Positions 60,129-64,000 of a stretch of DNA of 64,000 bases are shown piece by piece. The notes under the pieces are model-generated. The model was not told the origin of the DNA and searched no databases. It was given only the letters and a program-made list of their open reading frames with translations. Origin of the DNA: Sulfurospirillum sp. (GTDB taxonomy: Bacteria > Campylobacterota > Campylobacteria > Campylobacterales > Sulfurospirillaceae); the NCBI GenBank assembly GCA_045047115.1, contig JASFYR010000009.1, positions 64,001-128,000 of the forward strand, read 5' to 3'. Made by a program: the position numbers and the translations under genes. Within the stretch, counting starts at the first letter, position 1, and each line of letters begins with the position of its first letter.

Positions 60129-60557
60129 CTAAATCTCTATTTTAGCAACTCTTTGTGCATGTCGTCCGCCCTCAAATTTGGTTTGGCACCATCCGTCCAA
60201 GATAGACTTGGCAACTCCTAAGCCTACAACTCTCTCACCAAAACACAAAACATTTGCATCGTTGTGTGCTCTTGCCATTTGTGCGGTGTAAGCATCATGG
60301 CAAAGTGCGGCTCTTATACCTTTATGCTTGTTTGCACTTAGGCTCATTCCTATGCCGGTTCCGCAGATCAAAATACCCTGACTCCCGTTATTTGCTAAAA
60401 CCTTAAGACAGAGTTTGTGTGCAAAATCGGGATAGTCAACCCTAGAGTTGTTCTCTGGTCCCAAATCCACTACTTCATGCCCCATTTCTTTTAACATCTC
60501 TATGATATTTGGTTTGATATTGATACCTGCATGGTCTGTTGCAATAAAAAATTTCAA
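60129..60557 (-). CDS. rpiB: Ribose-5-phosphate isomerase B
   Basis: TDHAG, DYPD, CGTGIGMS, HNDANVL, FEGGRH. Confidence 0.96.
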   Translation of the reverse strand: MKFFIATDHAGINIKPNIIEMLKEMGHEVVDLGPENNSRVDYPDFAHKLCLKVLANNGSQGILICGTGIGMSLSANKHKGIRAALCHDAYTAQMARAHNDANVLCFGERVVGLGVAKSILDGWCQTKFEGGRHAQRVAKIEI

Positions 60558-60666
60558 AAACTTTCCTTCGGTGTAATTTATAGGGGATTATATCATAAGG
60601 AAGTTTAGAAAAGCTGTAATTAAAATAAAATAGTATATCATAACAAAAAATTTAGGAGTAATTTAT

Positions 60667-61317
60667 ATGAATTTGATGGTATTTGGTGCACCTGGAGCAG
60701 GCAAAGGTACTCAGGCAAAATTTTTAGTAGAAAAGTACAATATCCCCCAAATCTCGACAGGAGATATGCTAAGAGCCGCTATAGCACAAAAGAGTGTTAT
60801 GGGAATGGAAGCTAAAAAATACATGGATAACGGTGAATTGGTTCCGGATTCCACAATCATAGGAATTATAAAAGAGAGATTGGAAAAAGATGATTGCCAA
60901 AATGGCTTTATTTTAGATGGTTTTCCAAGAACTTTAGCCCAAGCTCAAGCACTTGATGTATTGATGGAAGAGAGTGGCAAAGAGTTGGATTTTGTTCTTT
61001 CGTTTGATGTACCTGATGAATTGATTATAGAAAGAATCGCAGGTAGAAGAGTATGTCCAAAGTGTGGAGCCTCATATCATATAGAGTTTAATCCTCCAAA
61101 AACTAAGGGAACATGTGATGCCTGCGGAGCAGAGTTGATAACTAGAGAAGACGATAATGCAGATACTGTTAAAAACAGACTTGCAAACTATCACAAGCAA
61201 ACCGCTCCTTTGATAGACTTTTATAAAAAAATGGGAGTTTTTGCTCAGATAGATGGTTCACAAGAACTCAGTAAAGTAACAGAGGATATGTTTAAAGTTT
61301 TGAAAAAAAAGTACTAA
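60667..61317 (+). CDS. adk: Adenylate kinase, long form with zinc-finger LID
   Basis: GAPGAGKGTQA, STGDMLR, LDGFPRT, CPKC..CDAC LID, REDD. Confidence 0.93.
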   Translation: MNLMVFGAPGAGKGTQAKFLVEKYNIPQISTGDMLRAAIAQKSVMGMEAKKYMDNGELVPDSTIIGIIKERLEKDDCQNGFILDGFPRTLAQAQALDVLMEESGKELDFVLSFDVPDELIIERIAGRRVCPKCGASYHIEFNPPKTKGTCDACGAELITREDDNADTVKNRLANYHKQTAPLIDFYKKMGVFAQIDGSQELSKVTEDMFKVLKKKY

Positions 61318-61323
61318 GTCTTA

Positions 61324-61359
61324 TATAGCCTTACAAATTATTAGTTTTGTGAGGCTATA
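61324..61359 (+). terminator. Putative terminator hairpin after the second adk
   Basis: TATAGCCTTACAAA-N8-TTTGTGAGGCTATA. Confidence 0.65.
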
Positions 61360-61472
61360 ACTCTGAGCATTTGGACAGTTGACACCTCTATGACACAGTT
61401 TGTAGATATTATGTTGTGTATGTAAGGAGTCAACTATAAAGAAACCTAACTAAAAAAGATTGATTTAAAGTT

Positions 61473-62669
61473 TCATTTAGAAACACTATAAGCTAAATTT
61501 TCATCAAATTTAGTTTTGTTCTTTAAAAGTATAAATATTGTTTTTAAAAGTTTATTGGCAACGGCTATAACAGCTTGTTTGAATTTTTTACCTTCTTCTC
61601 TTTTTTTAGTGAAGTAAGCATTGAATTTTTCACAGGAACGGATCGTTCCAATTGCCATTTGCCAAATAGTACGACGAAGGTTGGCATTACCTCTTTTTGA
61701 GATTTTGCCTCTATAGTTAACTGAAGTACCACTCTGTCTAACAGATGGGTCAATTCCAATAAAAGCACAAAGTTGCTTTACAGATTTGAACTTATCAACA
61801 GAGGATACTTCAACCATAAAGTTTTTAGAAGTTACTGCACCAATGCCAGGTATTGATTGTAAAAGTTCAATATCATCATTAATATCAGTATCTTCTAAAG
61901 AGTTTCGCAGCTCTTCATCAAGTATAGATAGTTCATTTTGAATGGTGATTAATCTTCTTATTTTAGAAGTTAATACCTTTTCAAGATACTTATCAGATAC
62001 AGCAATAGAGTTCTTTGCAAGTGAGAGTATCTCATCTGCAGTGATTTTAACTTTATTGCCACTGGTACTATCTAGTAGTTTTTGAATTTTCTGCTTCTTC
62101 AAGTTCCTAACAGCCTTACGGCTAGGAGCTTGAAGAAGCAGATTTAAAATGCTTTTTGTAAATATGTTTGTGAACTTTGCCAATTCTGGAAACAGTTGAA
62201 CTAAGTTAGCTTTTATTTCAGTTTTAAGTCTGGCTATCTCTTTAGAAAGTGATTCTCGCTCTCTAATAAGAGGTCTGATGCTTTCAATTGCATCAGGTGT
62301 AGCTAGATGCAATGACTGATATGATTTTAAACTAAATAGAGCAATTGAAGTAGCATCTTTTTTATCATTTTTAGTCTTTCTAAGAGTGGTTGAACCAATA
62401 AAACTCTTTATGAGTATTGGATTTATAACCACACTTTTAAAACTATTTTCTAATAAAAAAGAGAGTAATGGTAAATGATATATACCAGTAGCTTCCATTG
62501 ACACTAAGAGCTTATCTTTGGAATAAGATGATAGATATTCTAATAGAGTATCAAATCCTTTTCTATCCATTGTAAGTTTCTCTTGTAGTTTAATTTCTCC
62601 ACTACCCTCAAGTAGTGTAATATCAAAGCTATCTTGACTAATATCTATTCCACAGAATTGTTTATACAT
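61473..62669 (-). CDS. IS110-family transposase/recombinase
   Basis: RuvC-like DEDD (GIDIS, MEATG, KNDKKDA), coiled coil, SIPGIG HhH, PSVRQSG catalytic Ser, ISKRGN, AVANKL; ATG at 62669 follows AAGGTG. Confidence 0.95.
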   Translation of the reverse strand: MYKQFCGIDISQDSFDITLLEGSGEIKLQEKLTMDRKGFDTLLEYLSSYSKDKLLVSMEATGIYHLPLLSFLLENSFKSVVINPILIKSFIGSTTLRKTKNDKKDATSIALFSLKSYQSLHLATPDAIESIRPLIRERESLSKEIARLKTEIKANLVQLFPELAKFTNIFTKSILNLLLQAPSRKAVRNLKKQKIQKLLDSTSGNKVKITADEILSLAKNSIAVSDKYLEKVLTSKIRRLITIQNELSILDEELRNSLEDTDINDDIELLQSIPGIGAVTSKNFMVEVSSVDKFKSVKQLCAFIGIDPSVRQSGTSVNYRGKISKRGNANLRRTIWQMAIGTIRSCEKFNAYFTKKREEGKKFKQAVIAVANKLLKTIFILLKNKTKFDENLAYSVSK

Positions 62670-62693
62670 CACAAACACCTTTACAAGTTATTT

Positions 62694-62881
62694 TTACATG
62701 TAAACAGATAAGCAATCTTGCTTTTATCCTATCTCCATAATGACAGAGGCTCGAAGCCTAATCAACCTATTGGGATTACGAGCAAGTGATAGACTCCTTG
62801 GAGATTTAATAAAACTTCATTAAAAGTTCTATCATTGATCTAAAAAAAATGTGATCATCTTGCTTATCTCTTTACATGTAA
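62694..62881 (-). ncRNA. Candidate IS110 bridge RNA
   Basis: 22-bp inverted repeat (one mismatch) enclosing a small hairpin and two stem-loops with internal loops carrying target-like and donor-like sequences; -10 TATAAT at 62881-62886 on the minus strand. Confidence 0.7.
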
Positions 62882-62910
62882 TTATACAAAATTTATTAGT
62901 AGGAGTTCAA

Positions 62911-64000
62911 ATGTCAATAGATATAAAAGATCTTGCAAAAAATAGTAAGAATTTGAAACTTCTTTATGTTGAAGATGATAAAAATGCTCGTGAAACCACT
63001 CTAAAACTACTTGATAATTTCTTTAACAATATAACAATAGCTATTGATGGAAAAGATGGTATAGAAAAATTCAAAAACAAAAAGTATGATTTGATTTTGA
63101 GTGATATTAATATGCCAAATATCAATGGTTTGGAAATGTTAAAAAATATTAGAAAATTGGATACAGAGGTATCTGTTTTGCTGCTTTCGGCACATAATGA
63201 CAGCGATTATTTTTTAGAAGCAATTGAACTGGATGTAGATGGCTATATTTTAAAGCCCTTGGTTTTCAAGCAATTTATAAAAGTTCTATTTAAAATAGTT
63301 CAAAAAATTAATCTTTTAGCTTTGAACGAAAACTATCAAAAACATCTCGAAAGTGAGGTAAAAAAAAGAAGTGCAGAATTAGAACACAAGTTGTATTTTG
63401 ATTCTCTTACAGATCTTTTGAGTCGATATTCATTTTTTAAAGATATCGAAAAATTGGATTTACCAGTGATTCTTTTGCTTAATATTGATAAATTCAAAGT
63501 GATAAATGAGGTTTACGGCATAGATGTCGGTTCAAAAGTTTTACAAAAGTTTGCAGATTTTTTAAAGTTGATTATTAAAGATAATTCGTGTAAGTTATAT
63601 CGCTTATCTGCAGATGAATTTGCAATTGTAGATACAACAAGACATATTGATACAGAAAAATACGAAGAGTTGATAAGAGATATCTTCAAAAAACTTCACT
63701 ATTTTAAAATGTCAATAGATAAAAATATTATTTCCATAGATATAACCATAGGTCTTTCAACGGTTGAAAAAAATGGCTATGAAAGTGCAAAAATAGCATT
63801 GGACTATGCTAAAAAACATAAAAAATCTTTTATGATGTACTCCAGTGCTATAGATTATCGTAAAGAAAACAGTGCAGCTTTAAAATATAGAGATAAAATT
63901 TCTCTTGCTATTGATGAAAACAGGATAGTTGCAGTATATCAGCCTATAGTTGATAAAAATATGCTGATTGTAAAATATGAAACATTGATGAGATTGAAAG
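62911..64000 (+). CDS. Response regulator with receiver, degenerate GGDEF and EAL domains (3' end outside the window)
   Basis: Translated by hand from ATG 62911: LLYVEDD, ILSDINMPNINGLEM, YILKP; DSLTDL, NIDKFKVINEVYG, YRLSADEF; YQPIV..YETLMRL. Confidence 0.9.
   Translation, partial: MSIDIKDLAKNSKNLKLLYVEDDKNARETTLKLLDNFFNNITIAIDGKDGIEKFKNKKYDLILSDINMPNINGLEMLKNIRKLDTEVSVLLLSAHNDSDYFLEAIELDVDGYILKPLVFKQFIKVLFKIVQKINLLALNENYQKHLESEVKKRSAELEHKLYFDSLTDLLSRYSFFKDIEKLDLPVILLLNIDKFKVINEVYGIDVGSKVLQKFADFLKLIIKDNSCKLYRLSADEFAIVDTTRHIDTEKYEELIRDIFKKLHYFKMSIDKNIISIDITIGLSTVEKNGYESAKIALDYAKKHKKSFMMYSSAIDYRKENSAALKYRDKISLAIDENRIVAVYQPIVDKNMLIVKYETLMRLK

Follow-up and report, generated by a model that had tools for sequence, protein, structure and literature searches.

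The 64,000-nucleotide (nt) stretch of the genome of a Sulfurospirillum species analysed here (hereafter the window) very likely carries a complete IS110-group insertion element, inserted into the Shine-Dalgarno sequence of a gene for a response-regulator/GGDEF protein and encoding a bridge RNA with a right guide that itself resembles a Shine-Dalgarno sequence. In the proposed mechanism, a DEDD/serine recombinase would work with a bridge RNA of ~180 nt that bears target-binding and donor-binding loops. The right target guide, AAGGAG, would pair with the complement of the Shine-Dalgarno strand; the left target guide would be a run of U. Together, these two guides would account for the family's insertions 5-9 nt ahead of start codons. 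In an excised circle, the right end (RE; ...TTGA), the core dinucleotide CT and the left end (LE) would become contiguous, creating TTGACT, 17 nt and TATAAT, a junction promoter that would drive the bridge RNA and the recombinase harder than the integrated copy does. The element and its principal parts are the following.

61428..62905, minus strand: whole IS110-group element, with the core dinucleotide at either end; the similarity of relatives stops near both
61428..61429, minus strand: core dinucleotide at the RE junction, CT on the element strand and AG on the plus strand, placed via the relatives L007 and L040
61430..61472, minus strand: short non-coding right end of 43 bp, with the final bases ...ATAGTTGA (61437-61430)
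61473..62669, minus strand: recombinase gene, 398 amino acids from the ATG at 62669, identified by Pfam, NCBIfam and structure matches
62670..62903, minus strand: long non-coding left end of 234 bp, upstream of the recombinase gene
62697..62876, minus strand: predicted bridge RNA of ~180 nt, from folding and covariation
62904..62905, minus strand: core dinucleotide at the LE junction, CT on the element strand and AG on the plus strand

The family membership of the element is clear from its protein. The sole long open reading frame (ORF) on the minus strand between the two copies of AGGAGT that flank the gene runs from a GTG (61473..62678), but translation more likely begins at the in-frame ATG at 62669, which follows AAAGG, than at this upstream GTG at 62678. 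The N-terminal part of the recombinase matches PF01548 (DEDD_Tnp_IS110; 1.5e-32, residues 9-164), the RuvC-like DEDD domain, and the C-terminal part matches PF02371 (Transposase_20; 1.4e-24), the Tnp domain. The protein scores 222 bits against the NCBIfam model NF033542, 'IS110 family RNA-guided transposase' (cut-off 140), and its only PDB matches are the ISCro4 and IS621 transposases, at ~1e-29. The five catalytic residues of IS621, D11, E60, D102, D105 and S241 (PMC11208158), all have aligned counterparts in the protein, namely, D9, E59, D102, D105 and S313; the chain numbering of the IS621 structure is offset by 2, S241 being chain residue 243, opposite S313. The left end of 234 bp and the right end of 43 bp fit the layout of the IS110 group, a long LE and a short RE (PMC11208160); the IS1111 group has the reverse layout. 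A sequence-only reading of the same DNA had assigned the element to the IS110 family, and Pfam, NF033542 and the catalytic residues all agree with it.

The extent of the element was established by comparison with 60 genomes of relatives. Matches to other copies begin at query positions 524-526 and finish at 2006-2018, that is, at 61423-61425 and 62905-62917 of the window, so the boundaries proposed in the sequence-only reading hold up when other copies are mapped, as do the AGGAGT copies that it placed at 61425-61430 and 62901-62906 and the length of 1476 bp from repeat to repeat. The element body (61430-62903) comprises 1474 bp, and one 2-bp core brings it to 1476 bp. Near-full copies are present in 4 of the 60 genomes (G022, G042, G028 and G056; 81-90% identity), and end fragments of the element lie at contig ends in further relatives, for example, G003, G012 and G011. 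Contigs from 4 metagenome runs match only from 61423/5 to 62904/6 and then enter unrelated flanks. The absence of terminal inverted repeats, also claimed earlier, is borne out in that, of 51 inverted pairs, none of the 25 longest links the termini.

At the junctions displayed, the constant sequence is bounded by the AGGAG copies, and the identical hexamers around the copy in the window could suggest a 6-bp target-site duplication produced by staggered cleavage, in the style of DDE transposons. This explanation is extremely improbable. Copies have either T or A on the gene side of AGGAG, but the T at 61430 never varies and is part of the element itself. In L007, the two junctions have unequal repeat copies, AAGAG and AGGAG (CTCTT on the RE side against CTCCT on the LE side), and in L040, a relative with 62% protein identity and a different target, CT is the sole sequence common to both junctions. 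Empty sites, described below, carry a single AAGGA(G/T) where the flanks overlap, and the family is reported to lack target duplication (PMC11187229). We therefore reject the 6-bp duplication, which is contradicted by the L040 and L007 junctions and by the empty sites. Comparison of the junctions indicates that crossover takes place at 2 bp, as in IS621: the core reads CT on the element strand and AG on the plus strand (61428-9 and 62904-5). With a core of just CT/AG, the 6-bp repeat does not qualify as a duplication of the target. The remainder of the AGGAGT repeat is, on the same junction sequences, explained by the likeness of the left end (CCT...) to the target (CCTT), plus one chance T. 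The sequence ATAGTTGA (61437-61430) serves as the putative left donor half-site and supplies the TTGA of the junction -35 element; together with CT, it is unchanged in all 10 RE junctions displayed, that of L040 among them, and is found in L043 and L045 (50% amino acid identity) as well.

The element parts the target gene from its native upstream region.

61379..61427, plus strand: left target flank, natively upstream of the response-regulator gene and collinear with G008 and G010 at their empty sites, up to AAGGA(G/T)
62901..62913, plus strand: rebuilt Shine-Dalgarno sequence AGGAG (62901-62905) and ATG (62911-62913) of the response-regulator/GGDEF gene

The left flank ends in AAGG, one half of the original Shine-Dalgarno sequence. 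The target gene encodes Pfam Response_reg and GGDEF domains, and its ORF is open for 363 amino acids up to the end of the window. In two genomes of the same genus (G008 and G010), adk adjoins the response-regulator gene with no element between them, and both window flanks align onto a single AAGGA(G/T)-N5-ATG. Removal of the element had been predicted to restore a ribosome-binding site and start codon of a particular sequence; the empty sites confirm this architecture and not the exact letters, because the 5-nt spacer differs (~80% identity overall). Since the left end starts with CCT after the core, the insertion rebuilds AGGAG ahead of the gene. The same insertion places 1.5 kb between the response-regulator/GGDEF gene and its upstream region, and the expression of this gene may change. 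The upstream flank contains a direct repeat, TGACAC-N7-TGACAC, at 61379-61399 of the plus strand, which opens with TTGACA, precedes the split ribosome-binding site and is kept in both empty-site species (L009/L010 counterparts; TTGACACTTTCATGACAC in G008). This repeat may be a native promoter or regulator site of the response-regulator gene that now lies 1.5 kb away.

The location of the copy in the window is typical of the family. All 13 distinct left-end junctions at genome loci have an antisense start codon within a few bases. The ORF check covered 11 of these 13 junctions (L034 and L035 were left out because the pattern was unmatched), and in all 11, the start codon opens an ORF of at least 74 amino acids or one that runs to the contig end (in L039, for 22 codons only). 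A further 54 loci came from scanning metagenome contigs for the exact pattern; with duplicates merged and three loci excluded (flank shorter than 14 nt or a different spacer), the pooled total is 63 distinct junctions. In 61 of these 63, ATG or GTG lies 5-9 nt past AGGAG, and in 55, the ORF extends for at least 60 codons or is still open where the available flank ends. At all pooled start-codon junctions, the element is antisense to the target gene. By comparison, 204 of the 1154 AAGGAG sites in the host genome have a start-codon context. Across the 63 pooled junctions, insertion is thus both sequence- and orientation-specific. The relative L040, from a Campylobacteraceae metagenome-assembled genome, has reprogrammed target guides and occupies a site without a nearby start codon (L040 positions 573-763 and around 2000-2020).

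The left end folds into a structure that is preserved among relatives. Its minimum free energy has a z-score of -3.9 against shuffles, and in the predicted structure, an outer stem (62876-62860 / 62714-62697) closes two internal-loop modules, each of which has a stem-loop flanked by a 5' and a 3' loop strand on top of a basal stem. Across 12 sequences, 97% of the cells in this seven-helix structure are paired, compared with 36-42% when the partners are slid, and compensatory changes occur in 18 of the 46 pairs; the observed values were reached by none of 500 shuffles. The basal stem UGAU/AUCA is altered compensatorily in all four pairs in L043, which lies outside the 12-sequence alignment used for the covariation counts, and in one pair in L032. 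An alternative hairpin predicted by RNAalifold around the U run, UGAUC/GAUCA, was set aside in favour of this basal stem, and a proposed pair, 118-170, was dropped, being paired in none of the 12 sequences. A scan of 60500-64000 against Rfam at a permissive threshold yielded no bridge RNA family; the lone match, to a miRNA family (E 0.69) within the recombinase gene, is taken as chance. Among relatives, at two loci of one metagenome-assembled genome (L041:940-1189 and L044:941-1189), an insertion enlarges the terminal hairpin of the donor module by ~38 nt and leaves guides and stems unchanged, and in L040 (573-763), the target-loop hairpin is missing.

In bridge RNAs, a left guide shares the sense of the top strand, and a right guide complements the core plus the right half-site; after the right guide comes a handshake dinucleotide matching the other DNA (PMC11208160, PMC11208158). 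On this model, we propose the following assignments.

62850-62842, minus strand: proposed left target guide AUUUUUUUU, located through the L040 alignment
62799-62794, minus strand: proposed right target guide AAGGAG, which would pair with the core and right target, CT-CCTT
62793-62792, minus strand: putative handshake UC after the right target guide, complementary to the terminal GA of the element
62767-62760, minus strand: proposed left donor guide GGUUGAUU, in the sense of the RE end, AGTTGA-CT
62740-62733, minus strand: proposed right donor guide UUAUGGAG, the GGAG of which would pair with CT-CC of the LE start
62732-62731, minus strand: putative handshake AU after the right donor guide, assigned by eye

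By inspection, matches are seen for the right target guide, both handshakes and the left donor guide; the left target guide matches poorly. In the left donor guide, U replaces the core C, allowing a U.G wobble, and the corresponding columns in L007, L041, L044 and L043 read AGUUG... In the right donor guide, UA would pair with the next TA (CT-CC..TA of the left end) given one bulged U; the right donor guide of L040 is a contiguous UAGGAG. Beyond inspection, the assignments are backed by guide-target covariation in L040, where the right target guide is AAGAAAG and the element's own right target is CT-TTCTT, and where the left target guide columns read UGUGUUACU and the own left target reads TGTTTTACT. 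Because L040 is one independent case, we regard the guides as inferred.

Several observations weigh against the proposed explanation of the element and of its preference for ribosome-binding sites. The guide-target covariation depends on a single divergent relative, the poly-U left guide fits the left flanks poorly within the family of the window element itself, and RNAalifold pairs part of the proposed guide regions. The 5-nt spacers of occupied sites contain on average 2.59 A, compared with 2.46 in ordinary ribosome-binding sites (p = 0.55). At the locus itself, no same-species empty allele was found, the empty sites at hand being from other species, and the nearest relative, G003 (adk 94% identical), has no match to the response-regulator/GGDEF gene; the similarity to G003 ends just before the end of adk, which indicates that the locus downstream of adk is variable within the genus. 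Finally, the start-codon enrichment could come in part from the loss of harmful insertions elsewhere.

Taken further, this last point becomes an explanation in its own right, in which the preference for ribosome-binding sites arises mainly by selection after insertion: a short CTCCTT match would be recognised and insertions at other sites would be lost. The left flanks show no signal past the ordinary composition of ribosome-binding sites, and most of the 1154 AAGGAG sites in the genome are intragenic, where insertion would be harmful, both of which fit such selection. Opposed to it is the very strong shift from a background of 18% to 97% at occupied sites, and a U-rich left guide would in any case prefer the A-rich spacers of ribosome-binding sites (mean A of 2.46-2.59) over AAGGAG sites at large, for which the mean is 1.77 per 5 nt, lower than in both ribosome-binding-site sets. 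We consider selection as the main cause rather unlikely, and it is compatible with guide-directed insertion, the difference being one of degree only. The stronger idea that the poly-U guide picks spacers with extra A is unsupported beyond the contrast between ribosome-binding sites and other AAGGAG sites (p = 0.55).

The sequence-only reading held that joining the two ends of the element assembles a promoter, and the joined ends indeed give, on the minus strand, TTGACT, 17 nt and TATAAT. At the RE, ...AGTTGA (61435-61430) is followed by CT (61429-61428), and at the LE, CT (62905-62904) is followed by the 17-nt spacer (62903-62887) and then by the -10 element.

62886-62881, minus strand: -10 hexamer TATAAT, 17 nt downstream of the core

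The -10 hexamer is kept at the equal position in 12 of the 14 aligned relatives, as TATAAT, TACAAT or TAAAAT. TTGACT with the exact 17-nt spacing to a -10-like hexamer is found in L040 (TATAAT) and L043 (TAAATT), with different spacer letters, so that the layout persists in relatives down to 50% protein identity. In the integrated state, a -35 element with at least 5 of 6 matches is provided by the flank in none of the 63 junctions, and 4 of 6 are matched in 10 of the 63; by chance, a random genomic hexamer matches TTGACA in at least 5 of 6 positions in 0.7% of cases, or 2.2% across three registers. Circles of IS110 and IS621 elements rebuild a sigma-70 promoter across the RE-LE junction, and in IS1111 circles, too, a promoter arises where the ends abut (PMC11208160, PMC11208158, PMC11187229). 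From these comparisons, the junction promoter is probably functional.

Alternatively, the junction -35 element might have no real role. The RNA and the recombinase would then be transcribed equally from the integrated and circular forms, starting from TATAAT and the AT-rich DNA upstream of it, and TTGACT would be a by-product of the donor half-site. Promoters of Campylobacter-like bacteria rely little on the -35 box. A generic scan of this AT-rich stretch finds promoter-like sites as frequently as in shuffles (10 compared with 8.4 +/- 2.8), and because the count equals that of the shuffles, such a scan proves nothing by itself; the weight of the argument comes from the conserved ends. The integrated copy carries the flank-derived arrangements TTGAAC-18-TATAAT and TTGACA-16-TAAATT, each with 10 of 12 matches. 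Moreover, ATAGTTGA is required anyway as the left donor sequence, and because TTGA is constrained as a donor half-site, its conservation alone is no proof of a role in the promoter. The bridge RNA of IS621 is weakly made from integrated loci (PMC13626964). These points all favour the dispensability of the junction -35 element. Against it stand the retention of the TTGACT-17 layout in L040 and L043 despite differing spacer sequences, the lack of a 5-of-6 match in any of the 63 integrated contexts and the loss of the in-cis function of IS621 upon removal of the -35 element (PMC11208160). On balance, a -35 element without a role is unlikely. Separately, the RE TTGACT and the flanking TAATAT, with a 16-nt spacer between them, form an outward promoter-like site at 61433-61406 of the minus strand, antisense towards adk, which is probably due to chance.

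The earlier description of the element as intact and potentially active is fair, with intactness observed directly (the ORF, the catalytic residues, the RNA helices and both ends are whole) and activity inferred from the sequence. Metagenome contigs differ from this copy at 0-1 positions over 176-395 nt and run into other flanks, and one contig is exact over the last 58 nt of the copy and then enters another gene start. Several copies lie at contig ends in the related species G003 and G012. Counting against present-day mobility, no circle junction, new insertion or transcript end has been seen: neither a circle-junction joint nor an empty-site joint is present in the contigs of 4 metagenome runs, in which the window flanks are uncovered, and because contigs cannot reveal rare forms, this negative result says nothing on excision. 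The sole joint in the contigs of these runs is a 102-nt replacement in one contig of low likeness. In all, 20 runs contain part of the window, at most 0.51 of its words, and the 4 runs compared were all compared as contigs. A search of a plasmid collection in distant mode gave no match.

It could be, then, that the copy is a fixed, immobile remnant, perhaps retained because expression of the response-regulator gene has come to depend on it. Such a fate would be in line with the element being single-copy in its own 41-contig genome, where it matches only itself, and with the failure to find a same-species empty allele or a circle junction. The full-length ORF with all catalytic residues, the intact RNA helices and ends, the near-identical metagenome pieces that continue into other flanks and the multiple copies in G003 and G012 all oppose this explanation and make it quite improbable; the copy is better described as potentially mobile.

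The element is ordinary in that it belongs to a well-described family with a published mechanism. It shares with the bridge recombinases of IS621 and the IS110 group (PMC11208160, PMC11208158) the two domains and the same catalytic D-E-D-D and Ser; a non-coding RNA, predicted here, upstream of the gene; a CT core, with neither inverted repeats nor duplication; the proposed loop order of stem, left guide, stem-loop, right guide, handshake dinucleotide and stem; and an RE that would supply the -35 and an LE that would supply the -10 element. There are also differences from IS621, as described in these reports. The protein is distant (E ~1e-29) and has ~70 additional residues between the domains, the RNA is enclosed by a long covarying outer stem, the proposed right target guide comprises 6 nt (AAGGAG), the proposed left target guide consists of a run of U that places UU, and not CU, opposite the core, and insertion occurs at ribosome-binding sites in general, not at a single repeated sequence of the genome.

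The closest parallel for the target is IS900 of Mycobacterium avium subsp. paratuberculosis, an IS110-family element with the reported target motif CATGNNNNNNTCTCCTT, which consists of an antisense start codon, a short spacer and CTCCTT (PMC8141618). IS900 likewise lies antisense to the gene and is seldom found inside coding sequences. Given the like form of this motif, targeting of ribosome-binding sites was already known in the IS110 family. The host of IS900 belongs to an unrelated phylum, and the likeness of the two elements, compared here by target motif, may reflect either shared ancestry or convergence; unlike IS900, which has the hed ORF, the window element lacks a long opposite-strand ORF, the longest being of 51 amino acids. 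Another parallel is with the seekRNA elements ISEc21 and ISEc11, in which the abutted circle ends create a promoter and the non-coding region is both necessary and decisive for the choice of target; ISEc11, however, is an IS1111-type element, in which the RNA follows the gene, and the targets are different (PMC11187229). In the literature consulted, including the main text of Durrant 2024, the supplements of which may list such targets, we found no paper tying a bridge RNA guide to Shine-Dalgarno targeting.

What the present element adds is a likely explanation, at the level of RNA, for IS110 elements that sit between a ribosome-binding site and a start codon, and it represents a compact natural tool for landing at gene starts. 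Tentatively, and with somewhat less than even confidence, we suggest that its family carries a 'generalist' bridge RNA, which would combine a 6-nt guide that copies the Shine-Dalgarno sequence with a poly-U guide nearly free of information and a U.G wobble at the core, would address hundreds of sites per genome (about 200 candidate ribosome-binding sites in this host) and may have arisen independently of IS900. If true, the family would show that relaxed, half-site-dominated targeting by bridge recombinases occurs in nature, with each split site being rebuilt. Should the poly-U left guide tolerate most flanks, it would exemplify natural low-specificity bridge recombination, which is relevant to the off-target rules of bridge editors.

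Two further observations concern the recombinase gene and its distant kin. Within the coding region, between the two domains, lies a 20-nt inverted repeat at 62090-62142, 95% complementary and with a 13-nt loop, which is behind both the chance Rfam match and the self-match in the genome search. A distant relative, with 27-28% protein identity, is present in seven copies (L049-L055) in one Coprobacillaceae chromosome.

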